Source of the DNA: Elusimicrobia bacterium RIFOXYA12_FULL_51_18
GTDB lineage: Bacteria; Elusimicrobiota; Elusimicrobia; Elusimicrobiales; UBA9959
Reading direction: 5' to 3'
DNA length: 64,000 bases
Assembly (NCBI GenBank): GCA_001800245.1
Contig: MGVA01000028.1
Location: 66,328 to 130,327, forward strand
The notes below the pieces were generated by a model. It was given only the letters and a program-made list of their open reading frames with translations. It had not been told where the DNA came from and searched no databases. Shown piece by piece: positions 1 through 25,637 of this stretch; position 1 is the stretch's first letter, and every line of letters starts with the position of its first letter. Both the position numbers and the translations under genes were made by a program.

Positions 1-1018
1 CAGAGACGCGGCAAAGGCCTCGGCTCTGGCCGCGAAACTGGCGGAAAAACTTTCACAGATGCGGCGGGTGATGGAGGAGTATGCGGCCTATCAGGCTTCC
101 GCGGACGAGGGGCGGGGAGAAGCGGACAAGGCCGCCGAACTGTCCGGCCGCTGGAAAGCTCTTTATGACGCGCAGAGTGCGGAAACCGCGGCGGGCAGAG
201 AGCTTACTGAAACCTTGCTGGTTAAAATCGAACGGGCGCGTACCAGTCTCCTCGCGGAATTGTCAAATACCCCGGTGTTGACGGCTAAAAGCCTGGCCGC
301 TGTAAAACAGGAGACGCCGGGCGTTTATCCGGCGGTACAGCGGGCCGAAGAGAGGTTGAAAGCAAAGGATATGGCGGGCGCGCGCGCGGTTCTTGAGGGC
401 GCGCGCGTAGAACTTATGAAGAGCACCTGCGTTCCCTGCGCCCCGGCTTTGCGCGCGGCCGAGGCGGAGATCCAAGGCGGGGTTGACCGTATCACCCGGC
501 TGGAATCTGACGCCGCCCTGCTTGAGCCCGCCGCCCTGGCCCCGTTCCTTTCAGCCGCCGAAAAACAGGAAAGGGTCAGGCAGGAAAGCGCCGCCCTGGC
601 GGCTTTGATAACCGGGAATTATTCAGGCGCGATGGCCGCAAGCCTGATAGAGAAGCTTGAAAAAGCCGGGGGTTACATGGCGAAGGCGGTGGAAGCTTTC
701 GCCGCTAAAAATATAAGGCCTGCCGGGGAAGAGCAATTGAAAGCTTTGAACGAACTTGAACTGGGGAACAAAACCCTTGATGATATGCTTGAAAAAATGA
801 AATCTGCCGCCGCCGGGATGGACTCTTCTCCTAAACCTTCCGGAGTATTCACGCGGCCGGCCTCCGGCCTGGATTCTTCTCCGGTTAAACTGCCGAAAGC
901 GGGGGATTATATCCCGCCGGCCGAACTGCGCAAAAAGGTCATGGAGTCGCTTCAGGAGCGTTACCCTTCCTCCCAAAAGGATATTGTGGAAAGTTACCTT
1001 AAAAATGTGGCGAAGTAA
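1..1018 (+). CDS. C-terminal part of a large helical/coiled-coil protein (DUF4175-like), truncated by the window start
   Basis: Frame is open from base 2. Ala/Glu/Lys-rich helical sequence; C-terminal 'PAELRKKVMESLQERYPSSQKDIVESYLKNVAK' resembles DUF4175-type tails. Confidence 0.6.
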   Translation, partial: RDAAKASALAAKLAEKLSQMRRVMEEYAAYQASADEGRGEADKAAELSGRWKALYDAQSAETAAGRELTETLLVKIERARTSLLAELSNTPVLTAKSLAAVKQETPGVYPAVQRAEERLKAKDMAGARAVLEGARVELMKSTCVPCAPALRAAEAEIQGGVDRITRLESDAALLEPAALAPFLSAAEKQERVRQESAALAALITGNYSGAMAASLIEKLEKAGGYMAKAVEAFAAKNIRPAGEEQLKALNELELGNKTLDDMLEKMKSAAAGMDSSPKPSGVFTRPASGLDSSPVKLPKAGDYIPPAELRKKVMESLQERYPSSQKDIVESYLKNVAK

Positions 1019-1079
1019 GCAGCGGCCCCTTTTTCTCTTCCCCTTTTGAGTGTGTATCCTAAATCACATGACAAGGCTC

Positions 1080-1109
1080 TTGAACATCGCCCAGTAGCCG
1101 ATGTATAAT
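1080..1109 (+). promoter_or_regulatory. Putative sigma70 promoter of the FecR/barrel/giant protein/PorV locus
   Basis: TTGAAC (1080-1085), 18 bp spacer, perfect TATAAT (1104-1109), in the gap before the FecR gene. Confidence 0.5.
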
Positions 1110-1187
1110 AGTAACGGTGTTTAGGAGCGTGCCGGGACGCAATTTGAGCGCGTCGCGATTTTTTTGATATTCAATGGGGGATTTTCC

Positions 1188-2867
1188 ATGACCTGTCAAA
1201 CTATAGCGGATATGGGTCCGTTCCGGGGAGCGGTTGGCCGTCCGGGGGCCATAGGCCCCGCCGAACCCGGCGGGCGCCGTTTTAGCCGCGGCGCTTACGC
1301 GAATATCGTTCCCGGATCCCCGTCGGTTTTTCATCGTTTTTTTTCCGTTTCAATTTCATTGTTCCTGCTTTTGGGCCTGGAAGTTTTTTCCGATGCGGCC
1401 AAGATCACAGATACCTGGGGTAAAGTGGAGGTCAAACGCCAGGGCGCCGGAGAGTGGCAGAGAGTGGAAGGTTCCGGCACGCTGAAAGCCGGGGATTCCA
1501 TAAAAACCAATTGGCGCGGCAAACTTCGGATGTATCTGGAAGACGGCTCGCGTGTGGACATGGGCTCTTCCTCTTCCGTCACGCTTGACGCCGACGGAGC
1601 CGCGACTACGACTACGGTTAAGCTCGGAATGGGGTGGCTCAAGGCCTGGGTAAAAAAGGCCCAAAGAAAATTCGAGGTGCGCACCCCCAGCGCGGTCTGC
1701 GCCGTGCGCGGAACCGAATTTGAGGTGGAAACGGACGGGCGTAAAACTTCGGTAGATCTTGTAACCGGGCTGCTGGCCGTCAGTGATAACGCCGGCAACG
1801 AGTCCCTGCTTAATGCCGGACAGCATGTGAACGTGGACGAGCGGGGTATCGGTTCCGTTCAGTCTATTGAGGAAGGCCGTACCCAGCGCAGAGAGGAAAA
1901 CCAGGTGGGGCTGAAGAACGAGGTCGCCCTGGATATGACTAAAGAACAGGTAATGGCCGCGGCTTCAGAGGAAATGAAGCTTGCCGAGTACCAGCAGGGC
2001 AAGAGCATGATAGACGTCTTCGGCGAGAGGGTGCGTCTGGAGCAGTATATCGTGCGTCCCAGGGATAACCAGTTCAAGCTGGTGGTGCTGAACGACCGGA
2101 ACGGCAGGTTCGACTATTTTTTCTATAAAGGCACTTTTAATACTTCCCTTCCCACCGACCTGAGCGTGGCTCTTGGACAGCTCGGGGGCTGCGCGGGCGC
2201 TCCGTGCCAATACTACATGACCTCCTACGAAACCGCCAGGTCCAATCTGACGGACAAGGTTGAAGAGCTGGCTTCGGGCGGCCATCAGGTTAATGTGAAC
2301 GCAAACGCTGTGGCCAACGACGACGTGTCCTCATATTTTGATTCTTCCCTCAACAGTTATGCTGGAGTTTCCGGCGCGTATTGGAAGACGCTCTTTGATA
2401 ATTATTACATTAAATATAACGGCGTGACCTTCAATACCTGGGAACCCAATACGGGCGTTACCGCATACAACGGTACCCTCGGAACCGGCATACAAGCGTA
2501 TTTTAAAGATGACGGCACCGAGCAGGATGCCTTGCACAAATACATAGGGGATAACGGCGCTTTGGGCACCGCCCTTCCCGGGCAGAACTCCGACAGGAGT
2601 CCGGACGGGACGGTTTTGCACGATAAAATCAGGCTTACCTACGGTACCGGCGGCTACTGGGAACAGTACGATAACTACATCGTGAACGACGAGGGGCAGG
2701 TCGCGTCGCTGGGTGATTTCGACGGCAATCGCACGGGGGTTTCTTATAAGGAAACTCTCCTGAAATGGAATTTCGAGCAGGTGGTGACATGCAGTTTGTT
2801 CGGGGGAAGGAAGATCGATCTGGTCATTGAACCCAAGACCCTGATACAGTCGGGGCTTATAAGATAA
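1188..2867 (+). CDS. Exported FecR-domain protein with a long C-terminal domain of unknown type
   Basis: Hydrophobic signal-like segment, then a FecR-like region ('GDSIKT...LEDGSRVDMG...FEVRTPSAVCAVRGTEF'). Start uncertain (1164/1188/1212). Confidence 0.8.
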   Translation: MTCQTIADMGPFRGAVGRPGAIGPAEPGGRRFSRGAYANIVPGSPSVFHRFFSVSISLFLLLGLEVFSDAAKITDTWGKVEVKRQGAGEWQRVEGSGTLKAGDSIKTNWRGKLRMYLEDGSRVDMGSSSSVTLDADGAATTTTVKLGMGWLKAWVKKAQRKFEVRTPSAVCAVRGTEFEVETDGRKTSVDLVTGLLAVSDNAGNESLLNAGQHVNVDERGIGSVQSIEEGRTQRREENQVGLKNEVALDMTKEQVMAAASEEMKLAEYQQGKSMIDVFGERVRLEQYIVRPRDNQFKLVVLNDRNGRFDYFFYKGTFNTSLPTDLSVALGQLGGCAGAPCQYYMTSYETARSNLTDKVEELASGGHQVNVNANAVANDDVSSYFDSSLNSYAGVSGAYWKTLFDNYYIKYNGVTFNTWEPNTGVTAYNGTLGTGIQAYFKDDGTEQDALHKYIGDNGALGTALPGQNSDRSPDGTVLHDKIRLTYGTGGYWEQYDNYIVNDEGQVASLGDFDGNRTGVSYKETLLKWNFEQVVTCSLFGGRKIDLVIEPKTLIQSGLIR

Positions 2868-2902
2868 ACCCAAACAGATTTGCGGATTCAGAGGAGGCGG
2901 GA

Positions 2903-4180
2903 ATGACATTTAGCGGTACTACGGAATTTATAAGCCGGAAGAACAACAGGTTTGTTCAAAAAGCGGCCTATCTTATTGTTCTGCTGCTGGCCGCCTGCCG
3001 CCTGCCGCTTACCGCGTACGATATTACCCCTTACTACAATGCGTCCCTGATGGGCGGGCAGTATTTTTATGAAACCAACGCAGGGGCTCTGGCCGGCAAC
3101 GCTTCTTTGCTTGCCTCCGCCTCCATGAAATTATCTCCGGTGTTTACTCTTATCCCGCTCTATAGCGGCCGGTATCAGGGCGCTAAACAGGTGTCGGACC
3201 TAGCGGGCGGCGGGACGCTCTTTCAGGCGCTGATGGATCACAAAGCGGCCGTTAAAGGCGTCTATTCCGTCAGCCCTCTTTTAAAAATTAAGCCCGAGCT
3301 GGCCTTTAAGCGGGAGTACCTGAAAGAAACAAAAGATGAAGCCTGGGGCGACGGTCTTTTTGACTATAAACGCCCCGGTTTTTCCATTGAAGGGGAATAT
3401 AAATACAGCGATCCTTTCACTCTTCGCGTCGGCTACGATATTTATAATATAAGATTCCACAATTACACATCGCTGGAGTCCCAGATCGGAGCCGTTGACG
3501 GAAGTCTTGCCAGGGAAATGGCCGGCGATCATACCCTGAATTCGATGAATAATAATTTCTATATCGCAGGCAACGCTAAAATGCCCTGGGAGTCCCTGGG
3601 GGATGCGTCTGTCAGTTATACTATGCGTTCTTATGCCCATCAGCATGTAGTGAATGAGGCGGGGCAATTCAAGTCCGATACCAGAAGCGACAATGTGATC
3701 TCAGCCGAATTGGGCTGGCGGTTCCCCAGGAAGCTGGCAAACGGGAAAATGATGACGCCGGGTCTGAGCCTTGCCTACGTTATGAACGGTTCGAACCAGA
3801 ATAGTTATGATGCGCAGAATACCAAATTTATAAAGGACTATTACGCTTACGGCAAGGTCAGGACCGGCCTGGACGCGTCCCTGCGGACGCCCCTGGCGGG
3901 AGAAAAGCGGTTCTGGGAAACACGGCTTGGCGTGGGGTGGGTCCGGACCGGCTATGCTGAAAGACTTGTGCAGGACGCCGCCGGACTTTATAAATCCGCC
4001 AAGATCTATATCGACGAGCTTACGGCGGCTGGTGATGTCTCTTACGACATTGTGAAGAATTTCAAGTTGAAGGCCTCCATGCAGTACGGGCGCCAGAGTT
4101 CCAATATGAAATATGAGAAGCTTTATAAATATAGTTACGCGATGTTCAGTTATCTGATGGGGGTTACATACGAGTATTAG
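2903..4180 (+). CDS. Outer-membrane beta-barrel protein (Slam/DUF560- or BBP2-like)
   Basis: Signal peptide, alternating aromatic beta-strands and a terminal 'GVTYEY' BAM-type beta-signal; RBS GGAGG upstream. Confidence 0.7.
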   Translation: MTFSGTTEFISRKNNRFVQKAAYLIVLLLAACRLPLTAYDITPYYNASLMGGQYFYETNAGALAGNASLLASASMKLSPVFTLIPLYSGRYQGAKQVSDLAGGGTLFQALMDHKAAVKGVYSVSPLLKIKPELAFKREYLKETKDEAWGDGLFDYKRPGFSIEGEYKYSDPFTLRVGYDIYNIRFHNYTSLESQIGAVDGSLAREMAGDHTLNSMNNNFYIAGNAKMPWESLGDASVSYTMRSYAHQHVVNEAGQFKSDTRSDNVISAELGWRFPRKLANGKMMTPGLSLAYVMNGSNQNSYDAQNTKFIKDYYAYGKVRTGLDASLRTPLAGEKRFWETRLGVGWVRTGYAERLVQDAAGLYKSAKIYIDELTAAGDVSYDIVKNFKLKASMQYGRQSSNMKYEKLYKYSYAMFSYLMGVTYEY

Positions 4181-4181
4181 G

Positions 4182-4207
4182 CCGGAAATAGCATCGGCTA
4201 TTTTCGG
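4182..4207 (+). other. Intergenic hairpin between the barrel gene and the giant gene
   Basis: CCGGAAATAGC-atcg-GCTATTTTCGG, an 11-bp stem with one G-U pair. Confidence 0.6.
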
Positions 4208-4243
4208 AGGGATGAAGGCTGAATGATTCGGGATTGATTTTTT

Positions 4244-7200
4244 ATGAGCGTTAAAAACAAGGGTGAAATTATTATGACGAAAACACGCATAAATTTGTTC
4301 AGAAAATTCCTATTGGCGGCTGTTTTGGCCTTTATCCCGATACGCGCGATGGGCGTTTGGCCCGGCAGCGCGGTAAATTATCTTCCGGGAGCCGCCGGGC
4401 AGGGCCCTGTTGATAGTTTTTATTCTATCCAGGATGAGACTGGCGGGATATATAATGTCTGGACGGCCACCGCTCCGGCGCATCCGAACTATCATCAGGT
4501 ATATGTGCAGCATATAAATATGAACGGCGTTCCGGATTGGTTTACAAGGGTTAGTACTTCGGCCAATTATCAGGATTTATATGTGGATCCTAAATTAAGC
4601 TACGATGGTCAGACTGCCCTTAACGTGGCCTGGGGAGAACACGTGGATTCAACCGCCGGATCTGCCAAGGTTATGAAAGTAAAGCGTTTTATTTCTTCCG
4701 GCAGCATAGTGTGGGGCGGTGTGGGCGGCATACAGGTATCTTCCGGTATCATTGACGGTGGCACGATGGAGATCTCTTCCGACGGCGGACCGGTTTTTAT
4801 GATGGGGTATCCGGTTGGATCGGGTCTAAAGATGGTGGTTCAGAAATTGCAGAACTCCGGAGGCGGTTGCGCCTGGCCTGGCATTGGCGATTGCGTTACC
4901 GGAGCCTCCGGAACAGAGCTGTACTCCGCGGCCAACACCGATTCTATCGGTAATGTGGCTTTAGTCCCGTCCTCTTCAGGCATGCTGATAGTAGTCTCAA
5001 CGGGAGTGGTTTCCGGAGACTGGGCTATTTATGCGCATAGGTTAAACGAAACCAACGGTTCCCCTGTATGGTCATCCACTTTGGTCTCCGGTACAGGGGC
5101 CCGTGGAGGGATCGTGAACGGTATTTCCGACGGTTCCAACGGAGCTTATATTGTTTGGGATGATGCAAGGAGCGGTTATAAAAATGTTTACGCCACAAGA
5201 ATAGACAATGACGGAGCCGTTGTAACCGGCGGCGCCTGGTCCCTGGGCGCTAATGCGGGCGTGCAGTTCACAAATTTCACCGACGATATAAATAATATGC
5301 ATGTAGTCCCGACCGCAGACGGTTTCGCTCTGACATGTTCCACCGTAACAGGGCAGGACCAGCGATTCCTCTTCGGTACAATGTCCGCGTCCGGGGTTAT
5401 CCTCTCCTCCGGAGTGACCGCCGGGTTGGAGCCTCTCTACTCCCAAGCGGTTTGCAGGGATAGCGCCTGTTTTGTCGCGGGTTATAAGGGCGTGCCGGAG
5501 TTTACGGCCTATGTGGCCAGGATTACTCCGGGGAACTCCGTCAGTCTGTACCCAATGTTTGCGGGCGGGGATTTTCCGTACAATATAGCGCTGTCCTCCG
5601 TAGCCGGCGGCATCGCGGCTTCCTGGACCAGCAGCGCCGGCGCGCAATGGGCGAGGTATGCCCCCGCTACGGTTTTTGACCGGCGCCAGGTTTCGGGCTT
5701 AGTCACTTTCAGCGGCGTTTATGAGCCGAATACGGTTCTCACAGTGTGGCTCAGCACCTCGGCTGATTTTAGAGGAGTCACCGCTTCCACCCATATCCCC
5801 AACCCTTCTACTACACAGTCCTATACCATATCCGATATCCCCTCCGGGATATATTATATGGCCCTGACGGCGTCGTTCGACTGGCAAGTGGTTGCCTCCA
5901 CCCATCCCTGGGGAGTCCTGGGCCAGCTTGGTACGCCTACGGCGGTCGATGTCACGATCGGCGACGTTTCGGGTAATAATGTGGCGATGACCGACGGCCA
6001 TGTCCAGCCGAACCCCTGGTCTCCGGAATCACAGGCGCCTTCCATAGTTTCCTGCGTGGAGAACTTCGCTAACGGCGGTTCCTGCAGGATAAACGGCAAC
6101 AGCACTTACGGCAACGCTATCGCCGTGGACGGCTCCGATAATAGTTATATCATAGGCACCAATCTGACTGACTCGGCTATTGTGAAGTATGACGCTTCGG
6201 GCGTTATCGTTTCTTCAATTACGGCTAAATACGCGGTTTTCAACGATATAAAAATAAGCCCCGTCAACGGCGATCTTTATGTGGCGGCCCAGGGCCTGGT
6301 TTCCGGGATACGCGTATTCCGTTACGCCGCTTCCAATCTTTCTTTTGTTTCCTCTATAACCGTGTCAGGATACCAGGGAGCGCGCCAGTTGGATTTCGGC
6401 GCGGACGGCGAGGTTTATGTGGTTTCCGCGGTGGATAACGGGGGTTCCTACGGTAACGATATAAGAGTGGTCAGGCTGTCGGCTAACCTGTCTTCCGTTA
6501 CCGGAGATTGGAGCGATACGTCCAACGGTCCCGATCAGGGGATCGGCATACATGTAAGCGGGGGAGACGTTTTTGTGACGGGGTTTCAGCATCCAGTTTC
6601 AACTGATCAGGTTGTTGTCATCAGGCTGAGTACCGCTACCACCATGTCCAAGCTGGATACAGGGACGGCTGGTACGTCCCCCGTCGTTTTTGCCGAGGGG
6701 GAAGGTTTCAACCATTTCCGCGTCACTTCCGACGCCACAGGCGTTTATGCGGCTTATAGTTATCTTCTTAATACCAGCACCCAGACCGCTATATACCGCT
6801 TTGACAGGTCGAATATGTCGGCCGGATATTCGTCGGCCACCATGGCGGGCGCCGCCGCTTTCGGCGATCTTAAATCTTCCGGTTCCAAGTTTTTTGTTGT
6901 TGCGCAGTCGGATGGCAACCAGGCCCGTGTAACGCGGTACGATGCCGCAACTTTTGCGGCGGAGGCCTCCACCCGCGCTTCGGTACCTGCCGCCTACGGC
7001 ATGGCTCCCGGCGGTATGGCCTTTGGCACCGGTGGAGAGGTTTATCTGTCGGGTGCGCTGCCCGATGCCGGTGATTCTGCGAGTATCGGTATAACCAAAC
7101 TTGATTCTGTTGCCGGTCCGGTTCCGGGGGAAGAGGAGCTTATTACGGTATATGTCTCTACCGCAGACGCTTCGCCGGCCGCTTTTACAACCGGGGTGGA

Positions 7201-19200: not shown

Positions 19201-22200
19201 TATGGGCGTGCAGGTTATGGCCGGAGGGGGTATCAGCGGCGCGAACGTTTCCACCGGCGCCTATAACAACCTGTCGGCCAGTTCCATGACCGTGACCATA
19301 ACCCCCAACGGCGACGGAAATGCGGACAGGGCGTATGTCAACTTTATCATGGGCGACGCGAATATGGGCTGGCATGTGCTGGTTTCCTCCAGGCCTTTCA
19401 GAACGGGCGTGTCCCCGACTCCGGTCTGGGAGACCTGGGGCTGGGGCCAGCCGAATCCGGGCCAGATATTCTGGGAAGGCAGATATAATCCGTGGATGAA
19501 CTTCGGCGGCGTGGTTCCGACAGGGGCCTACTTCGTCAGAATAGAGGCCGGCAGTCTTAGGAACGATACCCTCAGGATAAATGTAGTGGTTCCCCAGGTT
19601 TCAGGCCAGGTCACCGACGCCGGAACCAGTCCTCAGAGGCCGCTTGAAGGTGTGATGGTGAATACGTTCGGCGCTTTCGGCTGGGGCCAGGCCACCACCG
19701 ATTCCAACGGTAATTTCTCCATCCCCGGTCTCGCGGCAGGCCAGTATAACTTCCAGTTCAGCAAGGAAGAGTACGGCATGGTGAGCTCTCAAACGGTAGT
19801 CGGAGTAAACGGCGCCACGGTTAACGCCAGCATGCGGCGCGCGCCCGCGCTTGTGATTATTCCTTCGCTGGGCAACGGCACTACCCAGCAATATGACCAA
19901 TGGGGCTGGATAAACGTTCATACCTCGGATTGGAGCCGCGTCTATAACGGCAGCCTCAGAGTGCAGGCCGGTACCACCACTATCGACGACGGCGGAAGAT
20001 GGGACGCGTCCACGAACCAGTTCGTTACCCGCAGGAGGATAAGGTTCGATGTCGAAGCGGCGACGTATACGGTGGAGGCTGAGTTGACCGGTTACGGCCG
20101 GGTAAGTTCCACGGTTTATGTCGGTTCTTCAGGACTTGAATTGACTCTTCCTTCTTTCGTCCGCAAAGCCAATTTGTCCGGCCTTGTGAGACTGCCGGTC
20201 GGCGCGCCTAACACGACCGGCGTCTGGATCTCCGTCAACGCCCTGCCCGTGGTTCTTTCCAGTTCCATAGCGGGCGGCTGGGGCGGCATCTGGCTTAACC
20301 AGGGAGTGACTTCCGGTACTTACAATATATTCGGCGTTGACTCCGGGAGTTATACGATCCGCGCGCAGGTGCCCGGTTATTCCGGAAAAAGTATAGGCCC
20401 GGTGTTCGTTTCAACCAGCGATATAAATACGGGCCTTGATATCCCCGCCTTCGATGCCGGTTCGGTGATACGGGGAACCGTTACTGTAGTGGGGGATACC
20501 CACTTGTTCCAGAAGCCCGACTGGGCTAATAATTGGGAGCAGCCGGTCAAGGTTAGCGTAAACGTCTGGTCGCCGCAGACCTATACCAACGGCTGGACCG
20601 AGATCTACGTGGCTACAAGCGCGGGACAGGCCCAGAGTACCTTCACTATAACCGGCCTTGACGCAGGCACTACTTACCAGTTGTTCGCGAACATTGAATA
20701 TAACCGTGACGACGGCAATACGGAGTTCACCGTTCCCGGCGGCTTCCCTAAACAGGTCTATGTGGATACGACCAGTCTCTCCGGCAATAGTGAATTCTCG
20801 TTCGCGCTGGCTTCCGGGGCTATATTCGGAACCATTATTCTGCCTACGACGCCCGCGGTTGATTTTAGTTCGGTGTCTATGAGTATCAGGATCACGCAGT
20901 CCGATAACCCGTACAGCGTAGGGCAGAGCTTCTCCATACTTGATATAACGGCCCCGTGCGGCGGGCAGAATAGCAATTGTCTACCCGGGGTTACATTGTA
21001 TGCGTCCAGCGCGACCTTCAGCGTATCCGGCATGGAAACCCAAAGCATAGAGGTAACTTTCACTTACAGGCTGACGGGCATGAGCAGGACCGCTTTGGTC
21101 AACGTCATAAGCGGCTCCACCGCCACCGTAGTGGTGGATTTGAGGAACCAGACCTATGCCATAGCCGGTTCTATAACCAACCAGGTTTCCAACCCGCTGT
21201 TCAATACCATGGCTCTGGCTATAGCCTATTCCTCGTATACTACGCCTTCGGGTTATCCCTCCATCCCCGCCAATAGCATGCCTATAGAGGCTGTGCGCAG
21301 GGACCTGAGCGAATTCGGCGCGGCCATGACCTCCGCGGTCTTTGACCCCGCTAAGACACGCGTTGGGTTCATAACTCTGGCCGGCACCTATACTATAAGA
21401 GGCCTGCAGGAAGGCGTCTATGTGATAAGGACCCAGCCTCTGAAGACCTGCGCCACTTGTGAAATGCTTGTGGCCGCTCAGGAAAAGATAGTGACCATAA
21501 GAGGACTGGACTACACGAATAATAGCCGCGTTATCGTGGACGGATTGTCGGTAAGCACCGGCGCCGTAAACTTTACGCTGATAGACGGCTGGAACGTAAG
21601 CGGTCTGATCTCCATAGATAATAACGTGCAGGACGCAAGGACGCTGGCGCTGACGCTCCGGAACAGGCGCAACGAGGTGGTACGGTCCACCACGGCCGCC
21701 CTGGGCAACTCCGGAACCAATTCCCTGGCCAACTCGGTGGCGTATTCCTTCACCAGGCTGCCCGGCGGAGAGTTTTACACGCTGGAGGTCAGAGATACGA
21801 AAGATTCCACAGGGACCATAAAGTATGCGGCGGCGCCGCTCAGGTTCCCGGACATCGCTTCATCGCCCAATGGTATGCAGTCCGATCTGAGCAGTCAGAA
21901 TGTGACCCTTAAACAGGGCGCTATGGTTACGCTTAAATTGCGCGACGTCAATTCGGCCAGTCTGCTGACGCAAACCAATTACACGCTGCTGGCGGCTAAC
22001 TTCAGCTGCTTCGCGATGGCTAATCCGTGGGTGCAGGGCGGCTATTATCTGGCCGCCTCCAGTATCTCCAACAGGCCCATAGAAGCCGACGGCACGGTGC
22101 GTATCGGCCCCGTGATGCCGAACGTTTATTACGACGTCAAGTGCGAACAGTCCAACTGGGACGTGGGATATATGAGGCAGGGCGCGCAGAATTATTCCCC

Positions 22201-24568
22201 GGCCGTAGTGGCCGGCATCCGGCCTTCCGCCGGGGAGACCCGCGATCTCGGAGTGCTTGACCTGAGGCAGGGTCAGGCTATGAGCGGAATTGTGAGTAGC
22301 CGCGACGGTTTCCCGCTGGTAAATATCAAGGTGACGGCCAAGCCTTCGTATATCGAAAACCCGATAACTATTCAGGCTATGACCAACAGGGACGGGAGAT
22401 ACACGCTGTGGGTGTCCACGTATATGTCCCGTTACTTCGATATAACCGCGGCCCCGCGCGAACAGAACCAGACCGTGGACGTGAGCACGATAATCTACCG
22501 GGAAAGCGTGTATACGGCGATAGATCTTACAAGATCCACCACCGTGGACTTTACGCTTGACGCCATGCTGGGCGGAGTCGAGGGCAGCGTTGTCACCATT
22601 GACAGCGGAGTCTTATCCTATCCCTTTGGCGATATGCAGGGATATCCAGCGGCGGCGTTGTTCATACAGCCGTACGGCACGGTTCCAAAGAATAATCCTA
22701 TAGGGGACATAGAAGCGATCACCGAACCCGGCGGAGGATTCTCCGTGCCGCTCACTACCGGAAGCTATACGATGAGGATCGTGAGCCTGGGCTATTCCGT
22801 GCCGGTAACCACATTTGCCGTGACGGGCTCGGGCATGGTTAACCTGGGCGCGACAGTTCTCCCCAAGGGCGGAACCGTAACCGGCCAGATAAGGAAGCCG
22901 GATTCCACCGCGGTCGGAGGCTATACGGAGCCTAACAGCGACGAGATCAGCCTGGTTACCGCCGCTAACGACGGCTTTACGGAATTCGTAATGGGAACGG
23001 TGGTGAGCGACCCTGTTTCCAGGACTATAACCCGGTATGCCATCTCCGGCTTTAAGCCGAACATAGACTACTCCCTGGCTCTGATGTCGGATAATAACGA
23101 TATGACATTCCCGTCGGAGGGAAGCGTGCGTTTCAGCCAGGATGAGTCAACCGCCACCAAATCCGTAAACCTGACCTTCAGGCCCAGCCACGGCGACTGC
23201 ATGGTGGTTTCAAAGAGGGGCGGCTCCGGTATGAGGTTGAAGTTCGTTTGCTCTAAGGCGTTCCGGAACAGGACCGCGGAAGACAATAACCTTACCCTTA
23301 TCCTGGCTACCAGTTCGGTTGATTCCTCCGGGCACGCCGTCTCCGCTCCGGATGGGTCAGGGGCGTTGTCGGATATAGAATTGTCGGCGGACCGGAAACA
23401 GTTCACGGCCCTCTACAGCACGGCCGCTTCAGAAGGCATGTTCAGTATAAGGCTGGCGGCATACACCAGCGAGATAGACCAGGCCACCGGCGATAACTTC
23501 ATGATAGACAGGGTTTACGATTTCTATACGGGCGTCAAGTCCGTTGCCGCTTCAAAGTTGAACAACATGCGCGGCGGACGCGTGGAACTAGAAGGCGAGG
23601 AAGGGGACGATGAACGCGGCGCGGTCGAATTCCCGCCCGGCACTTTCGCCCTGGACGGTTCCGCTTACGCGCTTGTTGCCACGACCGTGACGGTGGAAAT
23701 GCTAAAGGCGGATGATCTGGACGGCGCCACGGCGGGGACCTCCGCTCTAGCCGCCGGAAAGTCCGGCGGCGGCCGGCTTGCCTCAGTTCAACGCACCCTC
23801 CCGAAGGGGTTGTATAACGCCATGCAGGCTCTGCGGGAACAAAGGGTCGGCAACTACAAGACGAGAGCCGTCTCCGGTTCCGGCTCCACCGTCAATCCGT
23901 TCAGTTCCTTCTATGACATCTCTCTGCCGGCCGGTATAAGCCATGTGTTGCAGCAGCCGGCCAGGATAACGTTGAGTTACAATACCGCCCTGTCTTCCGG
24001 CACGGACGCGTCAGATCTCAACGTCTATTACTATAATCCCAACAGCCAGCGGTACGTGTTGGAGAGCAGGGAAAGGACCTTGGACCGGGATAACGGCACT
24101 ATTTCTGTGAATGTGGACCACCTCTCGGTCTTTGTGGTCCTGGCGCAGGCGCCGGCGGATGGAGCCACGGCTTACGCTTATACGGGAAAAGAATTGAAGG
24201 CGCATAACTTCCCGAATCCGTTTAATAATACCCGGACGAAATCAATAAGTCTTAACGACGCCATCGCCACAGGCGGTTATACGGCCGCCGCGGCGCCGTG
24301 CACTACTCAGGGTACCTGTATAAGGGTGTTCGTGCCGGCAGGCACAAGCGGGGATATGACCCTTAAAGTGTTCAACATCGCCGGCGAACTGGTGAGAGAG
24401 ATGCAACTGACCGGCTATTCCGCCGGCACCACCAACGTGTGGCCCTGGGACGGGAAGAACGGTTCGGGCGCCGGAGTGGCTTCAGGCGTCTATATCGGCG
24501 AAGTTAAAGTTGGAGGCGATAAGGCCTTCTTTAAGATGGCTGTAATCAAAGCTTCGAAGTATCAGTAG
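4244..24568 (+). CDS. Giant (6774 aa) secreted modular surface protein with C-terminal T9SS-CTD/FlgD-Ig-like domain
   Basis: Uninterrupted 20.3-kb ORF; signal peptide (probable start 4274). Recognisable parts: beta-propeller repeats, 2 Big_5-like, 2 LecA-like, FN3, 2 PPC-like, ~14 DxNxN Ig repeats, carboxypeptidase-regulatory-like domains, and 'FPNPF...VFNIAGELVR...WDGKN...ASGVY'. Confidence 0.9.
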   Translation: MSVKNKGEIIMTKTRINLFRKFLLAAVLAFIPIRAMGVWPGSAVNYLPGAAGQGPVDSFYSIQDETGGIYNVWTATAPAHPNYHQVYVQHINMNGVPDWFTRVSTSANYQDLYVDPKLSYDGQTALNVAWGEHVDSTAGSAKVMKVKRFISSGSIVWGGVGGIQVSSGIIDGGTMEISSDGGPVFMMGYPVGSGLKMVVQKLQNSGGGCAWPGIGDCVTGASGTELYSAANTDSIGNVALVPSSSGMLIVVSTGVVSGDWAIYAHRLNETNGSPVWSSTLVSGTGARGGIVNGISDGSNGAYIVWDDARSGYKNVYATRIDNDGAVVTGGAWSLGANAGVQFTNFTDDINNMHVVPTADGFALTCSTVTGQDQRFLFGTMSASGVILSSGVTAGLEPLYSQAVCRDSACFVAGYKGVPEFTAYVARITPGNSVSLYPMFAGGDFPYNIALSSVAGGIAASWTSSAGAQWARYAPATVFDRRQVSGLVTFSGVYEPNTVLTVWLSTSADFRGVTASTHIPNPSTTQSYTISDIPSGIYYMALTASFDWQVVASTHPWGVLGQLGTPTAVDVTIGDVSGNNVAMTDGHVQPNPWSPESQAPSIVSCVENFANGGSCRINGNSTYGNAIAVDGSDNSYIIGTNLTDSAIVKYDASGVIVSSITAKYAVFNDIKISPVNGDLYVAAQGLVSGIRVFRYAASNLSFVSSITVSGYQGARQLDFGADGEVYVVSAVDNGGSYGNDIRVVRLSANLSSVTGDWSDTSNGPDQGIGIHVSGGDVFVTGFQHPVSTDQVVVIRLSTATTMSKLDTGTAGTSPVVFAEGEGFNHFRVTSDATGVYAAYSYLLNTSTQTAIYRFDRSNMSAGYSSATMAGAAAFGDLKSSGSKFFVVAQSDGNQARVTRYDAATFAAEASTRASVPAAYGMAPGGMAFGTGGEVYLSGALPDAGDSASIGITKLDSVAGPVPGEEELITVYVSTADASPAAFTTGVEAAALRMDIYTVSSSTSISNVRVSVNPNGPYTRAAYVGFYVDSNRNDIWEPGTDALISSAAVTSAFVDLPVAAGIINNDPYGSFITLTPSASALGSSINLGIDSTASFTVGGVMAEQAVYPIRSDARLVQPPVSFSGGGLNGPSASILNGTAMDQGVDVKAYGSSVYAIGIAYPNSVLIKYSTSTGQVAALTGLSGVDFTALAVNANGIYVTGKGYYAPGFVTIKYAHDLTIVSSVTLAGASSAYGITLDGAGRVYVIGDNAGEGGSNNDYKIVEYNSDLVQQGAAHIWNAGGVDYGKGIAVSDDGSLIYATGLSLMGGATYYATAKFDGAFVFVSSTAYPGYADDHIDTVDIVQNSTSGAVYLAGSANHEAMLLAKYNSNLVLQSTAGVYSPAYAVGAGIAQDSVGNVYIAGGYNAGGAAHDENTVVKFSPALVRQSSATTFSAYGFEPGGLALDGYGYPYVTGVLLVSGSSSTWDMKTVRLAQLADVVAAKPYITVTVPYGGAVDVSSGIRYIDITFSEPVTPASLNAGGDGLSPYLMFSKPGGYHNPRFTGFSNLYGNTYRIAMVDVDLDSNTVYTVEAANFESGSAVVMDPASFSFTTTGSAPAGKPSITATNPTAGATGVSLGLTAIDITFSEPIVLDAGDIGGKINLFVGAEDRYNLLSTFTYVSGNTYRLELKNGPLAAGTVYRVELSNFANESAAVIDPDSFSFTTEAGATTVNLLVQNAASPYMRYYSTNSALKLSLWTDSGSSQWSAMTVNLGGTVVPCSDVDALYVYRDSGDGAYSDTNDSYVGYASPCNGGTFNFYTPETIGVSTSVYFVTVSPRSSAIGKTARLTITSTAAFTIGGSDVMHSLTGMPANSAIATVMNYIYASEMGSYNYDTNISVIAGQALQINATGYWNYDATHQVNADGSGECSSTCPLPSAYRGALIARGDSTPWFVVGRSTTIVLGYSDTLRLAMNDDDYNDNTGIMMFEKAAQAVTKIWTGAACGGVGCNEAGNPMNWQGGVLPAYGDNVVFGGTGAKDCLWNLNITVNSLYVYPEYNGRISLINPPGMNINRLEITDYLYIRGGTFDIAGNILAASSITVSGGVLDLGAGLGDLQVGPGGLNVTGTGTLAFTGNTSASIDPMAEGYYPISIFGGTVTVNGAGLLNIRGSNGIAISNSPALTFNNVRIMNLASGATALSITAASGDYTFDNWGFDASVTNNVGLTGSAMIYMNNASGAQMGTPHELSDPDNRIIWNPDGGGTGSIGGNLSYSGNKTGNYIVFVTTNMTSSSFAAISTSASTGYSFGSLKAPATYYLWATRDSNSDYDYTASIMEPIGWLNAPVYLSTGAALTRNMTLLDTGKITGTIDKSATNQAGMTIVELHTQPLSATSLFDWQVLDQWEYQYLVAAPSATYTVLAYIDVNQNERFDPAFESSGTATDVLISTGGTVTNNIALNSGSVEAGGIVGISTTAFFAGSFIGKTNSAAVMKLGLVSNGGEATVGSLRFSSIGTAEAGKFSLSVYKDDGNGLFDNDPSIPNSTYNDMLLGNGYFGGVSSQAAISFTNEVGLLSSGATQYFFVMLTATNPVSGSTIGAVLLSSDSVGLLKGTMAGQAIYPVSTPLRTVSDSIDVWSTLYTGVDVYSGQTINISASGQWQVNGVYVYATGSGSNMYNGVYPNAPVGALIAQVGYNSPWFYVGTSTSFVYSGMTGPLMLHMNTNYDFGTMMWNYPNGVSGQLYVNYSVEGDTHAVISGLVTYAGGTNGTIIVNAGSRRPDLSRYECRVMTPSESCMVDVIVGTHTIPSPLAGGTSYYTMGGIEIPQGDSDNVIISAYIQEDPSQRGIAPTQVGIRIGQAATGGDVTVYSGAGTLNGNISYSGAQQFGNTVVALFTNLEGGNPVVSTTLAEGVSAFSIADIPGPALYYVVAFRDLDYDNKPSGPEPFGYYGSTGPISLMSSNAVQLNVASNVVTNVPATINLLDMGQINGRIDLGSLQFGIRVLVQAGHGIPGSSFVKENQSEYFAQPCWWYGCINEVYYNVGTLSPAEDYTVVAFLDKNGNNQWDCDAENCERFASSRNNISVTANGMAQADIALTAAPVPDTPQSFSGTVLSTDVILWAWNDVPTETSYYLTTSTGGILHVLDANTTQYSETVAGGANTISSVRAVRAHNYAGDSPLSSMIALYTKAAAPELVVNGVSASEVNLGVSSATNRFVLQRSTAIAGGYIVVYSTYTGTSVTSRVDAGLTPGTTYYYRALNFNAQSVASAYSAVAIATTTAPTGYFIRGTVNYPGLMTGNITLLASTQEFLSNPITVALSGNTTQAYYLTGLASNTSYYIRAFVDYNADNARQIYEDASAIAGPIYLAASGLSGQDINIVRSTAIPASPSGLVATPGFQRVSLQWIASAASNLIGYEVFRSTNASFSSAVTRVSGDSFVTGASFTDFNPLAGVPLYYRVKAADWGRNRSLPAALSSPVNVSAGGSITGTVYAVDTSTQGLYHVRVSTTPDANVPSLMDIMVSTAPATYTVSGLPDGSYYVRGYRDFNNDFKQDRRQEPSGTHGGIARPFDIYMTQGNSLTGIDVKVCNRLPLAVGVSTRVTISATGCEALDRGPGYYTRVYTLEAGYGAGKVPTGSQITVYANKTDPLDGINDAYLYLVGPTGDVVARDDDSGGDMNSRIQYTLDTPGVYLIEPTSYASGLSGALNVGFDVTGGFAGRISGTLSYSGSMTGPSVVQIYETLTANSWPVMMSSTSVSDFEIIGLRDGNFYLKAFKDVNGNGVQDSFEPYGVYGGTTAVQFSVSGGVTSASLAITLAEPAVGSVSGNLFYNGGRTGNIRIEAARQRGSDQYDLEVVKFSTVTRGNETVDQAYILDLLAPATDYTIRAFVDENSNNQKDVMEPFISARSITVTASTQTTGVNLNIVNPGSGGVGNSILSGAITYTPIPGQNYISTGNIWVGWASDQSFENILYSQVVSTFTQYASSTAWTYSKSDVMGGATYYMASFLDLNGNGQPDDRNGEPMAMYSIDGEMAPVSVPTSSTVVRNLALTPPSTGYLSGVVHYYGAMTGSAKVSAWNQSCENTSEQKDCSAENYFAIINGVTDYPFTLRFLNPTTSYQLSSVIDLNGNQMTDPGEPNAYLPGYIVSGSTTAALTIMDPGQMAGGNIGEIRGIVTYGGHQGGDKIVRLFRGGFYGAPVQTMNINAGCLGNSCSFAISGLSYAADYYVDAFVDSSFNGMFEPAFEPHGGITSAISVSQAVPQSRNNYMTLEDPGTGADIPTGSNLLSGMVSVQGGTPSGTVRVQLFRFVSTVSVMEVPIRVATYPYVSSANQTPISYSFDNLPSDGGARYIAQAYVDSNSNFTPDRNEAWGQTKALNQGISTSDPAEQKNFSVCARTSIDQGQNLNGSLETSDCVSSDRGQASAFVDYYSFGGRAGDIVTLEMTGTGFSDTYLYLYGPSMRSTEAFTSYNLAAFDDDGGGNYNSKINGYTLTADGIYTIGAASYGNNITGAYTLSMRVSGGTNGSIAGTVRYNGTQGGNINVGLFNSNPMEAQNVNSIMGASMQVPGAFLFGDLPSGTSYYIAGFVDVNGNNSPDQGEDFGMYPNIITLRAGQNVTGTLLEINHSTDVVFVGGAGQGTISGAISYTGISTATSLVIEMWNTATFRGTPIGIRTMQLTGEWPVNYDLQVPGDQTYYLKAFLDANNNRMPEPSEAKGAYTPNNEGPEPIYVGSAAYITDRNFTLYDPGQTLAGGAQGVSGEGWASVLPSLVAAGSQFTSTVTVRVTGLGEGGVVMVGMPNNLYSSLQTGCSGCPGYVQVSSDGTHYSAAQLISNNAQYRVPMGQSLAAGASVYFAINNLYAPCQGGMTGQQSDNRLVFHVGTSSNAFTGPQPLVSGEPTAVLGAGAPQNLSFRLADNMNGANMAVPNGEVTPMLAEARDNCWNLAPMSSVYIATVSAYFYNMATYGYDNDATVKFSTWNAEADSVTATSATVRFEADSSTGVFYVKPTAQGYRNIGLSYDLAWSNTFYMGVQVMAGGGISGANVSTGAYNNLSASSMTVTITPNGDGNADRAYVNFIMGDANMGWHVLVSSRPFRTGVSPTPVWETWGWGQPNPGQIFWEGRYNPWMNFGGVVPTGAYFVRIEAGSLRNDTLRINVVVPQVSGQVTDAGTSPQRPLEGVMVNTFGAFGWGQATTDSNGNFSIPGLAAGQYNFQFSKEEYGMVSSQTVVGVNGATVNASMRRAPALVIIPSLGNGTTQQYDQWGWINVHTSDWSRVYNGSLRVQAGTTTIDDGGRWDASTNQFVTRRRIRFDVEAATYTVEAELTGYGRVSSTVYVGSSGLELTLPSFVRKANLSGLVRLPVGAPNTTGVWISVNALPVVLSSSIAGGWGGIWLNQGVTSGTYNIFGVDSGSYTIRAQVPGYSGKSIGPVFVSTSDINTGLDIPAFDAGSVIRGTVTVVGDTHLFQKPDWANNWEQPVKVSVNVWSPQTYTNGWTEIYVATSAGQAQSTFTITGLDAGTTYQLFANIEYNRDDGNTEFTVPGGFPKQVYVDTTSLSGNSEFSFALASGAIFGTIILPTTPAVDFSSVSMSIRITQSDNPYSVGQSFSILDITAPCGGQNSNCLPGVTLYASSATFSVSGMETQSIEVTFTYRLTGMSRTALVNVISGSTATVVVDLRNQTYAIAGSITNQVSNPLFNTMALAIAYSSYTTPSGYPSIPANSMPIEAVRRDLSEFGAAMTSAVFDPAKTRVGFITLAGTYTIRGLQEGVYVIRTQPLKTCATCEMLVAAQEKIVTIRGLDYTNNSRVIVDGLSVSTGAVNFTLIDGWNVSGLISIDNNVQDARTLALTLRNRRNEVVRSTTAALGNSGTNSLANSVAYSFTRLPGGEFYTLEVRDTKDSTGTIKYAAAPLRFPDIASSPNGMQSDLSSQNVTLKQGAMVTLKLRDVNSASLLTQTNYTLLAANFSCFAMANPWVQGGYYLAASSISNRPIEADGTVRIGPVMPNVYYDVKCEQSNWDVGYMRQGAQNYSPAVVAGIRPSAGETRDLGVLDLRQGQAMSGIVSSRDGFPLVNIKVTAKPSYIENPITIQAMTNRDGRYTLWVSTYMSRYFDITAAPREQNQTVDVSTIIYRESVYTAIDLTRSTTVDFTLDAMLGGVEGSVVTIDSGVLSYPFGDMQGYPAAALFIQPYGTVPKNNPIGDIEAITEPGGGFSVPLTTGSYTMRIVSLGYSVPVTTFAVTGSGMVNLGATVLPKGGTVTGQIRKPDSTAVGGYTEPNSDEISLVTAANDGFTEFVMGTVVSDPVSRTITRYAISGFKPNIDYSLALMSDNNDMTFPSEGSVRFSQDESTATKSVNLTFRPSHGDCMVVSKRGGSGMRLKFVCSKAFRNRTAEDNNLTLILATSSVDSSGHAVSAPDGSGALSDIELSADRKQFTALYSTAASEGMFSIRLAAYTSEIDQATGDNFMIDRVYDFYTGVKSVAASKLNNMRGGRVELEGEEGDDERGAVEFPPGTFALDGSAYALVATTVTVEMLKADDLDGATAGTSALAAGKSGGGRLASVQRTLPKGLYNAMQALREQRVGNYKTRAVSGSGSTVNPFSSFYDISLPAGISHVLQQPARITLSYNTALSSGTDASDLNVYYYNPNSQRYVLESRERTLDRDNGTISVNVDHLSVFVVLAQAPADGATAYAYTGKELKAHNFPNPFNNTRTKSISLNDAIATGGYTAAAAPCTTQGTCIRVFVPAGTSGDMTLKVFNIAGELVREMQLTGYSAGTTNVWPWDGKNGSGAGVASGVYIGEVKVGGDKAFFKMAVIKASKYQ

Positions 24569-24577
24569 CCCCGGCAG

Positions 24578-24599
24578 GGGATCCCCCGCGGGGGATCCC
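24578..24599. other. Perfect 22-bp palindrome just after the giant gene
   Basis: GGGATCCCCCGCGGGGGATCCC is its own reverse complement; no U-tract follows. Confidence 0.8.
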
Positions 24600-24677
24600 G
24601 CGAGGGCCTAAAATTCGCCGCGAAAGATTCCGTTTATTGAGGAATTCCGGTTAATTGCACGATCGGGAGAGAATATT

Positions 24678-25637
24678 ATGAAGACCATTAAAAAAATGAT
24701 TTTTGCGTTAGGGGCGGTTTTCACCGCCCAGGCGCTTTGCGTCTGCGCGGTTTTTGCCGCATCGAGCGAAGCCGGGACCAGCGCGGCTCAGTTCCTGAAG
24801 CTGGGAGCCGGTTCGAAGGCCGGGGGCGTGGCTGAAGCTTATACGGCCGCCGCGGATGACGTCTATTCCGCCTATTATAATCCGGCCGGACTTACGCGCA
24901 TGCCGTCCCCGGAGTTTGCCGCCCAGCATGTCAGTTATTTTCAGGACATAAGCTATGAATTCCTGGCTTTTGCCTTTCCTTTCGACAAGCAGGACGGCGT
25001 GTCCAGGCAGGCGCTGGCCCTCTCGATCTATAATCTGTCGGCCAGCGGCCTGGAGACAAGGACGGAAGATACCCTTCTGGCCTCGGGGCTTTTCGATTCG
25101 TCCGAATCCGCTTACGCGTTCAGCTACGCTTACCGCATGAAAAAGAATTTAGGCCTTGGCGTCACGGCGAAGTATATCCGGGAAAAAATAGACACCGAAT
25201 CCGCCGGCGCGGCGGCGATGGATGCCGGCCTGTATTATAAGCCGCTTGAGGACAGGCCTTTGGATATAGGGCTTGCCGTCAGAAATTTCGGTTCCAAGCT
25301 CAATTTCGGCGGCGGCCGGGATCCTTTGCCGCTGGGCGGGGTTCTGGGATTGGCTTATACCTTCATGCCGGGCCTGAAGGCGGATATAGACTTTGTCCAG
25401 TACAGGGACACGGATCTTATTGTGGCCGGCGGAACGGAATATTCTCGCGATTTTAAATATGATCTGTCCGCGGCCCTGCGTCTTGGATATTCCACGCATA
25501 ATAAGGACGTGGGGGGGCTGAAAGGCATCGCCGCGGGGGCTGGCCTTAAGTATTCACGTTTAAGTTTTGATTTCGCCTGGGTTCCTTTCGGAGATCTGGG
25601 CAATACTTTCCGCTATACCCTTTCGGTGAGATTTTAA
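24678..25637 (+). CDS. PorV/PorQ (FadL-like, UPF0164) family outer-membrane protein
   Basis: 'GTSAAQFLKLGAGSKAGGVAEAYTAAADDVYSAYYNPAGL' hatch motif, signal peptide, terminal Phe. Confidence 0.85.
   Translation: MKTIKKMIFALGAVFTAQALCVCAVFAASSEAGTSAAQFLKLGAGSKAGGVAEAYTAAADDVYSAYYNPAGLTRMPSPEFAAQHVSYFQDISYEFLAFAFPFDKQDGVSRQALALSIYNLSASGLETRTEDTLLASGLFDSSESAYAFSYAYRMKKNLGLGVTAKYIREKIDTESAGAAAMDAGLYYKPLEDRPLDIGLAVRNFGSKLNFGGGRDPLPLGGVLGLAYTFMPGLKADIDFVQYRDTDLIVAGGTEYSRDFKYDLSAALRLGYSTHNKDVGGLKGIAAGAGLKYSRLSFDFAWVPFGDLGNTFRYTLSVRF

Follow-up and report, generated by a model that had tools for sequence, protein, structure and literature searches.

A candidate four-gene surface-display module of Elusimicrobiota, built in part from components related to type IX secretion

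The 64,000-nucleotide stretch of DNA analyzed here, referred to throughout as the window, lies on contig MGVA01000028.1 (positions 66,328 to 130,327 of the forward strand; G000:C28:66328-130327 in the numbering used below) of Elusimicrobia bacterium RIFOXYA12_FULL_51_18, a metagenome-assembled genome (MAG) of 2.75 Mb in 69 contigs that is 90% complete. Near its start are four co-oriented open reading frames (ORFs) on the plus strand, which encode a FecR-domain protein (ORF1), an outer-membrane β-barrel of unclassified family (ORF2), a giant cargo protein (ORF3), and a second outer-membrane barrel belonging to the PorV/PorQ family (ORF4). The interpretation slightly favored here is that the locus represents one instance of a surface-display module of four genes, conserved across Elusimicrobiota and put together partly from parts related to Bacteroidota's type IX secretion system (T9SS). 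The coordinates of its features are collected in Table 1.

Table 1. Features of the four-gene locus, in window coordinates
Feature	Position	Strand	Remarks
Sigma-70-like promoter candidate, TTGAAC-18-TATAAT	1080-1109	+	10/12 matches
ORF1, FecR-domain exported protein	1164-2867	+	567 aa counted from first TTG
ORF2, 16-strand outer-membrane β-barrel, unclassified family	2903-4180	+	425 aa
ORF3, exported giant, cargo	4244-24568	+	6774 aa
Giant, domain aa 1965-2202, fused to N-terminus of ORF2-type barrels in other Elusimicrobia	10136-10849	+	9 proteins
Giant, twelve DUF2141-like repeats, "AF.D.N.N...E" each, aa 2391-4672	11414-18259	+	regex count; partial Pfam DUF2141 matches
Giant, conserved cargo core, aa 4715-6769	18386-24550	+	homologous to whole cargo proteins of orthologous cassettes
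Giant, putative C-terminal sorting/anchoring domain, FlgD_ig / T9SS-CTD-like, aa 6680-6774	24281-24565	+	
ORF4, PorV/PorQ-family outer-membrane barrel, putative cognate partner of giant	24678-25637	+	319 aa

The four ORFs span positions 1164-25637 and are separated by only 35, 63, and 109 nt, so that the tight, co-oriented arrangement described in the original prediction, which was made from the sequence of the window, is confirmed; hydrophobic N-termini typical of exported proteins, as judged by eye in all four translations, agree with its view that every product is exported. Its proposal of a single sigma70-like promoter fares less well. The candidate site stands ahead of ORF1, but TTGAAC-18-TATAAT-like sites in positions 900-4400 number 3 against 2.9 expected from shuffles, so that this promoter is plausible by position only. 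A convincing plus-strand terminator was found neither between the four genes nor after position 25637. On the 3' side, convergent housekeeping genes close it off, among them that for valyl-tRNA synthetase (26612-29311, minus strand); on the other side, the ORF at 2-1018 upstream of ORF1 has only a weak DUF4175 match, and no sigma-factor gene adjoins the locus. The host was expected not to be a member of the Bacteroidota, and it is indeed a MAG of the Elusimicrobiota; the six ORF2 relatives that carry a name are all Elusimicrobia MAGs as well. Among 11 listed DNA sequencing runs (ten from groundwater and, with a small share, one from soil, all of them metagenomes), six contain at least half of the sampled words of the stretch, and all six are groundwater metagenomes; no RNA run containing window positions 1000-4600 is among those listed.

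Comparison with related genomes, in which gene calls for the genome-wide and synteny counts came from a simple ORF caller of our own rather than a gene finder, reveals that the arrangement is widely retained. A FecR-type ORF carrying the C-terminal domain of ORF1 lies just upstream of the barrel gene in 24 of the 28 informative short loci (29 in all), and the same adjacency occurs in all six loci of the first named ORF2 relatives. After extension of 19 of these loci to 20 kb, the order FecR-like protein, barrel, cargo of 1570-3589 aa ending in the same type of C-terminal domain (CTD) as the giant, and PorV-family protein was found in 16, and all four genes in 17; the exceptions are a same-genus locus with a permuted order, one without a flagged PorV gene, and one without a FecR gene. 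The loci left at their original length are five in which a PorV ORF directly follows the barrel (L043, L046, L050, L058, L065), three at contig ends (L051, L057, L059), one with the FecR gene downstream (L064), and one in which no FecR gene was seen (L066). With synteny in related genomes conserved to this extent, the four genes can confidently be regarded as a functional unit. Some local variation accompanies the cassettes, as these four-gene loci are called here: a small ORF of 132-152 aa lies between barrel and cargo in L070, L077, and L078, with none in the window locus.

The giant has Pfam matches to Big_5, SBBP, DUF2141, CarboxypepD_reg, PPC, and FlgD_ig, and its sequence looks like that of an adhesin rich in β-sandwich domains. 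The repeats listed in Table 1 are seen as a motif only, as blastp of the giant against itself (E 1e-6) gives no off-diagonal match. Residues 4715-6769 align with the entire cargo proteins of seven cassettes (L067-L073) at 28-30% identity over 1814-2142 alignment columns, those alignments of 1883-2142 columns reaching E 1e-133 or better, so that the giant can be described as a conserved core of ~2000 aa preceded by an N-terminal extension of ~4700 aa. The cargo of the remaining cassettes has the last ~240 aa in common with it. The tail, "...FPNPF...WDGKN...ASGVY...KMAVIK", in which the original prediction had recognized a terminal domain, matches Pfam FlgD_ig at 39.4 bits (cut-off 27). Across cassettes, 24 aligned CTDs share the pattern "GT.IKY.LP...I.IYN.AGELVREID...YY..WDG.ND.G..VASGVY...KMAVIK", with matches to FlgD_ig in 24/24, CHU_C in 19/24, and Por_Secre_tail in 4/24, to the PorU and PorZ models, through their CTD parts, in 24/24, and to the type A CTD model TIGR04183 in 18/24 (E<=0.01). 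Searched against the Protein Data Bank (PDB), the cassette CTD profile finds FlgD structures best (E 4.6e-6) and PorU 6za2 at E 0.0024. A second giant ORF of at least 5939 aa occurs at G000:C46:34506-52325; as it runs to the contig end, its C-terminus and any partner gene are out of sight.

ORF4 matches the PorV/PorQ family model NF033709 at 162 bits (cut-off 90) over model positions 1-326, and the solved PorV 6h3i_F at E 1e-9, in accord with the original assignment of a PorV/FadL-family gene directly after the giant. Because both equivalog cut-offs are missed (PorV, NF033710, 83.6 versus 250 bits; PorQ, NF033711, 88 versus 220), it is best considered a member of the family and not PorV or PorQ proper. 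Its Pfam matches are weak (FadL/Toluene_X, 15.7 bits; UPF0164, 22.8 bits), and databases annotate its relatives as "PorV/PorQ family protein," with one source calling some of them "long-subunit fatty acid transport protein."

A scan of the source genome for PorV-family proteins and CTDs, for which the ORF caller was combined with tblastn, jackhmmer, and hmmsearch, found 17 strong PorV-family genes (16 from the ORF caller, to which C34:9193-10086 was added) and 18 ORFs ending in the same CTD. For 14 of the 17, the immediate upstream gene on the same strand ends in a CTD; for the gene on C3 the cargo is the second gene upstream, a FecR-domain gene intervening, that on C14 stands at a contig start, and that on C51 is without a CTD neighbor. 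Only 1 of the ~15 CTD-PorV pairs lies beside a FecR-barrel pair. The sole match to the PorP-family model TIGR03519 in this genome (31.4 bits, cut-off 90.55) falls on the PorV paralogue on C33. Several of the paralogues (on C13, C14, C9, C33, and C20) are 492-575 aa long and so carry an extra domain relative to the ~320-aa core, and one relative (P0164) has TPR repeats fused to the PorV domain. In the phylum as sampled, the family occurs in 49 of 51 genomes, with 1-2 copies per genome in taxonomic family f2, 0-5 in f12, and from 4 to at least 34 (mostly at least 7) in the other sampled families; one relative genome has 43 paralogues.

In a maximum-likelihood tree of 42 PorV-family sequences, the PorVs encoded in cassettes fall into two clades. 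One (7 rows, support 99/99) holds the window's ORF4 together with exactly those loci whose cargo shares long homology with the giant, and the other (13 rows, support 100/95) holds further cassette PorVs, while the other PorV paralogues of the source genome lie outside both. To place the label "cassette," this tree needs only 2 changes, and 0 of 500 shuffles attained that figure; since kin share labels, this indicates clustering rather than independent events. The view that the PorV homologue is dedicated to its cargo thus gains support both from the 14/17 adjacency and from these separate, well supported clades, and adjacency and co-divergence together suggest that ORF4 serves as the receptor or anchor of the giant's CTD.

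The probable start of ORF1 is the ATG at 1188, behind GGGGGA at 1174-1179, and the protein matches Pfam FecR (PF04773) at 60.3 bits (cut-off 24), with 5056 relatives at E<=1e-3. Its AF2 model (pLDDT 80) consists of an N-terminal β domain, two linker helices (181-200 and 206-218, numbered along the folded sequence, whose start is window position 1326), and a C-terminal β domain. The N-domain superposes on the C-terminal cell-surface signaling domain of PupR (6ovm_R; Z 17.2, rmsd 2.1, 128 residues) and on the anti-sigma protein BDI_1681 (Z 16.3), and its first ~75 residues superpose on the "cell surface anchoring domain" 5ix9 (Z 7.8, rmsd 2.2, 75/76 residues), alongside a weak match to the retention-module model NF033682 (22 bits, cut-off 50). 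The FecR equivalog NF007296 reaches 24.9 bits against a cut-off of 385. ORF1 has no N-terminal cytoplasmic anti-sigma domain with a transmembrane helix, its homologues starting 4-30 residues ahead of the FecR domain, and no lipobox cysteine in its N-terminus. For the C-domain of ~290 aa, Foldseek and VIA-align return only partial barrels (TamA, LptD) at Z 5-6, in the background range, and matches in the Atlas have TM below 0.33, so that no fold is claimed. A Gly/Pro/Arg-rich stretch of ~46 residues (window 1188-1325, including "GGRRFSRG"), which is without counterpart in homologues, precedes the hydrophobic segment and may be a long signal n-region or a membrane anchor.

ORF2 has no match in Pfam or NCBIfam. 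Its AF2 model (pLDDT 88) is a barrel of 16 long strands, for which PDB structures offer only generic likenesses (PgaA 4y25 at the top, TMt 0.57, then porins, OmpG, and BcsC). Nearly all of the 203 relatives detected are hypothetical proteins, and those labeled by organism are Elusimicrobia or generic "[bacterium]" MAG records; the family is present in 31 of 81 genomes of the phylum (f15 11/11, f2 1/25, f12 0/21). Neither ORF2 nor 38 family members match TonB-dependent receptor or STN models, and the PorP/SprF model TIGR03519 matches neither ORF2 nor ORF4. Two other candidate affiliations are not supported. The autotransporter β-domain PF03797 does not match ORF2 and matches 2 of the 38 family members weakly (best E 0.0028), and for Slam (PF04575), a lead provided by one Atlas look-alike cluster (19% of members, TM 0.66/0.77), 0 of the 38 give a match at E<=1.

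Gene fusions connect this barrel with both the FecR-like protein and the giant. A FecR-like part and a barrel part are joined in the 793-aa protein P0285, and in genome G009 the two lie within one open frame. In nine barrel-family proteins of 688-739 aa, an N-terminal domain of ~230 aa resembles residues 1965-2202 of the giant (28-34% identity, E 1e-19 to 4e-27); in P0022 and P0025, the two of the nine whose sequences were inspected, a Pro/Ala-rich linker follows this domain in an autotransporter-like layout. A second, divergent pair is found 37 kb upstream of the window (G000:C28:29521-37432), where a FecR-like protein of 621 aa and a barrel of 409 aa, the latter 22% identical to ORF2, are separated by a 247-aa ORF and followed by an ORF of 1163 aa without a CTD. 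Barrels of this second type also occur just upstream of the cassette in L075, L080, and L084.

The original prediction had supposed that the FecR protein and the first barrel act together, and co-folding agrees with that supposition. Barrel residues 36-425 folded with FecR-like residues 25-513 gave ipSAE values of 0.85, 0.69, and 0.85 in three runs, the best of three controls giving 0.00; the runs share at least 64% of contacts, with partner pLDDT of at least 71. According to the contact list, the partner's helices face alternating, lumen-facing residues of barrel strands 1-9, residues of its N-domain meet the barrel's periplasmic turns 77-81 and 123-125, and strands 220-266 of its C-domain meet the conserved extracellular loops. 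Conserved residues are enriched at the interface in both proteins; the odds ratio is 2.0 on the barrel side (p 0.017) and 3.1 on the partner side (p 0.005). The pair is thus predicted, with high confidence, to form a new outer-membrane complex. As the co-fold sets the FecR-like helices in the barrel lumen, it would be a plugged anchor and not an open channel; a plugged anchor or dock is more likely than a translocon, given that no cargo outside this conserved class of large proteins has the pair with it and that prediction shows it plugged.

The remaining components of a T9SS were sought across the genome. The original prediction had noted no PorK/L/M/N, SprA, or PorU gene in the window, and for most of these the genome-wide searches likewise brought up no clear gene, with SprA as the exception. 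A 1816-aa ORF on another contig (G000:C31:34750-40200) is a SprA/Sov homologue, whose match to TIGR04189 (142.6 bits, E 8.8e-42) falls into three collinear pieces, and SprA-like proteins of ~1750-1900 aa occur in 141 of 151 sampled Elusimicrobiota genomes, among them 44 of 45 from family f2. Its gene is flanked by divergently transcribed LptF/LptG permease genes (G000:C31:32572-40962), and downstream lies a gene combining a double zinc ribbon with a phosphoribosyltransferase, presumably ComF-like. GldL (TIGR03513), GldM (TIGR03517), and GldN have no match in the source genome, their models being silent also in 14 control genomes without T9SS, and a search for GldM in 61 Elusimicrobiota genomes, of which 60 are at least 90% complete, gave no match in any, against controls likewise without T9SS. 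The best GldK match reaches 61.6 bits (cut-off 350) through a generic sulfatase-modifying C-terminal domain only, and matches of this kind also occur in the Bacillus, Caulobacter, and Methanosarcina controls. The PorU model NF033707 is matched in 8 places, all within model positions 955-1095, which correspond to the CTD, with a best score of 55.1 bits (cut-off 420), so the catalytic part was not found. No complete canonical T9SS that would make the giant ordinary cargo was therefore detected elsewhere in the genome. Given a SprA/Sov homologue encoded elsewhere in this genome and in most of those sampled, the locus need not supply its own translocon.

How these parts may work together can be outlined as follows. 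The giant would be exported by Sec, as its N-terminal signal-like sequence suggests, and its route across the outer membrane would be the SprA/Sov-like protein that is found phylum-wide and here has its gene on another contig. Its uncleaved FlgD_ig/T9SS-like CTD would then be held by the PorV/PorQ-family barrel encoded downstream, so that the giant stays on the surface. Of the T9SS proteins, PorU and PorZ retain their CTDs and are seated on PorV and PorQ. This precedent, together with gene adjacency, co-diverging clades, and the apparent lack of a PorU sortase, underlies the proposed retention step. ORF1 and ORF2 would form a second outer-membrane complex, with the N-domain at the periplasmic face, the helices in the lumen, and the C-domain on the extracellular loops, which most likely docks, organizes, or helps to assemble the cargo at the surface rather than serving as its channel. 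As judged from sequence, the CTD-PorV part would be a pair of cargo and receptor related to T9SS, of which the source genome has many instances, with the SprA-like protein as the obvious candidate pore. For the whole, a motor-less, T9SS-related display pathway comprising the conserved four-gene module, a SprA-like pore, a cognate PorV anchor, and a FecR-barrel dock, the probability is estimated at roughly 55%.

Several points weigh against this interpretation. The SprA-like protein falls below the TIGR04189 equivalog cut-off (142.6 versus 200 bits) and has neither a Pfam SprA match nor a PDB match by phmmer, and we infer its role as translocon from homology only. GldL, GldM, and GldN are described as not found rather than absent, because the 14 control genomes in which their models are silent hold no T9SS and because the source genome is 90% complete. 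The giant's own tail scores 20.1-20.3 bits on TIGR04183, below the cut-off of 23. Among the best 30 PorV loci of five other genomes, a CTD ORF ends within 400 nt upstream in 15 (in one more the distance is 584 nt, and ORF2-type barrels lie upstream in two), and in the five short loci in which PorV directly follows the barrel no cargo gene intervenes. That the FecR-like protein threads or plugs the barrel lumen is read from the contact list and not from coordinates, and the calibration of the mark used to call the complex (reached by 58/80 solved complexes and 2/110 mismatched pairs) holds only roughly here because our own alignments were used as input.

The alternatives differ chiefly in which component is taken to move or hold the giant. 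It is unlikely that the FecR-like protein and the first barrel constitute a dedicated translocon or assembly machine for the giant, parallel to T9SS and independent of SprA, with PorV only anchoring or shuttling it, as the original prediction had proposed. Such a machine would account for the tight and wide synteny of the four genes, for the predicted complex, for the nine proteins in which the giant's domain is fused in cis to this barrel type as passenger, Pro/Ala linker, and barrel, and for the failure to find PorKLMN. The distribution of the barrel speaks against it, however: with only 1 of ~15 CTD-PorV pairs in the source genome beside a FecR-barrel pair, and with the barrel family in 31/81 genomes as opposed to 49/51 for the PorV family and 141/151 for the SprA-like protein, ORF2 cannot be the general translocon of CTD cargo, and a barrel of 16 strands, with the partner's helices predicted to fill its lumen, is an unlikely channel for a β-rich protein of this size. 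Less probable again is that the giant is ordinary cargo of a complete T9SS whose PorK/L/M/N and PorU genes are unassembled or too divergent for the TIGR and NCBIfam models. The incompleteness and fragmentation of the genome leave room for missing genes, the GldL/M/N models are silent in all control genomes too, and the genome does encode a SprA homologue, PorV-family proteins, and CTDs; yet GldM was found in none of the 61 genomes of the phylum, 60 of them at least 90% complete, the PorU model is matched in its 8 places through the CTD part only, GldK scores no higher than 61.6 of the required 350 bits through the same generic domain as in controls, and the pairing of PorV cargo by cargo is not the canonical layout.

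Two further explanations concern individual components. The closeness of the ORF1 N-domain to the PupR signaling domain (Z 17.2) and to BDI_1681 (Z 16.3) could mean that the FecR-like protein and barrel are a cell-surface signaling pair of the FecR/PupR-and-transducer type that regulates expression of the giant and has no part in its display. This is very improbable, given an ORF1 without an anti-sigma domain and far under the FecR equivalog cut-off (24.9 versus 385), a barrel without TonB-dependent receptor or STN matches, and a locus adjoined not by a sigma-factor gene but, upstream, only by the ORF with the weak DUF4175 match. Hardly any weight can be given to the idea that the PorV-family barrels are FadL-like small-molecule channels whose position after CTD proteins is unrelated to anchoring: the weak FadL/Toluene_X (15.7) and UPF0164 (22.8) matches and the fatty-acid-transport naming used by one source are opposed by a full-length NF033709 match above its cut-off, by adjacency to CTD genes in 14/17 cases in the source genome and 15/30 elsewhere, and by the co-divergence of cargo and PorV types. 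The motor-less display pathway remains preferred, and it also admits a broader and distinctly more tentative version. A phylum-wide, motor-less relative of T9SS might use a SprA-like pore of ~1800 aa for many cargoes and a PorV receptor per cargo that keeps the uncleaved CTD, supplemented for one class of giants by an "autotransporter in trans," the FecR-like protein running through the 16-strand barrel as a trans-outer-membrane dock or possibly as a periplasmic link that replaces PorKLMN.

Comparison with known systems clarifies what is shared and what is not. As in the T9SS of Bacteroidota, there are a SprA/Sov homologue (142.6 bits, under the equivalog cut-off), PorV/PorQ-family barrels above the family cut-off, and cargo with an N-terminal signal sequence and a C-terminal β-sandwich domain of ~75 aa, and the cassette CTDs match the CTD parts of PorU and PorZ (24/24) and TIGR04183 (18/24). 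The differences are the host phylum, Elusimicrobiota; the GldK/L/M/N proteins and PorU catalytic part, not found in searches whose control genomes hold no T9SS; 17 PorV paralogues here and up to 43 in a relative, many of them one per cargo; a SprA-like protein of ~1800 aa compared with a 2319-position model; and a giant whose CTD lies under the type A cut-off. Classical autotransporters likewise have a polypeptide segment in the barrel lumen and domains on both faces, as predicted here, and the nine ORF2-family members with passenger, linker, and barrel in cis strengthen the likeness; the ORF2 barrel and the protein that would thread it are, however, separate polypeptides, and the barrel has 16 strands rather than 12. 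Giant adhesins of the LapA/MpIBP type possess a periplasmic retention module to which the ORF1 N-domain may be likened (5ix9, Z 7.8; NF033682, 22 versus 50), but no type I secretion system is involved here. FecR/PupR regulators resemble ORF1 in the fold of the N-domain (Z 17.2), in the Pfam FecR match, and in the predicted contact with an outer-membrane barrel; ORF1 differs from them in having no cytoplasmic anti-sigma domain, TonB-dependent transducer, or adjacent sigma factor, and in carrying the C-terminal β domain of ~290 aa instead. With Slam (PF04575) the only likeness is the Atlas look-alike cluster, set against 0/38 HMM matches and an ORF1 without a lipobox cysteine.

The type B CTD cargo systems (PG1035-PorP-PorE and SprB-SprF) are similar in that a large surface protein is anchored by binding a co-encoded, dedicated barrel and a periplasmic protein associates with a barrel (PMC9143113). 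The dedicated barrel here belongs instead to the PorV/PorQ family, with TIGR03519 reaching only 31 bits on one PorV paralogue, and no relation of the ORF2 barrel or the FecR-like protein to PorP or PorE is detectable. T9SS has been placed in the Bacteroidetes or the FCB superphylum and treated as dependent on the PorLM motor and the PorKN ring, and TXSScan detections were confined to Bacteroidetes, where 60 of 97 genomes gave one. PorU, PorV, PorQ, and PorZ form the attachment complex, and cargo binds PorV at the surface. A literature search of main texts found no paper linking Elusimicrobia with T9SS, PorV, or SprA, although Table S3 of PMC4793230 may hold per-phylum hits; PMC7031533 and PMC8542988 mention T9SS in their reference lists only, and PMC12204202 treats Elusimicrobia and T9SS-side topics separately. 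As databases already use the name "PorV/PorQ family protein," what is new here is the pattern at the level of the system, together with the FecR-barrel complex.

Elsewhere in the window, a gene for a YhcG/DUF1016 PDDEXK nuclease (37503-38447) lies beside a dip in G+C content to 0.49 (38001-40000), and positions 50001-58000, where G+C is lower (0.48-0.50) and GC skew strongly positive, contain ORFs in one shared orientation at 51035-56173 (398, 445, and 873 aa).

If the preferred interpretation of a motor-less display pathway is correct, a phylum outside the FCB group keeps a SprA-like pore, expanded PorV barrels, and CTD cargo, with no motor, ring, or sortase detected, which bears on the evolution of T9SS, on its minimal core, and on whether PorV-type barrels began as per-cargo anchors. 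The predicted FecR-like/barrel complex would add another way of holding proteins across the outer membrane and may offer a function for a large family of "hypothetical" Elusimicrobia proteins. In practical terms, the module would serve as a marker for the main giant surface proteins in a groundwater lineage that is uncultured.

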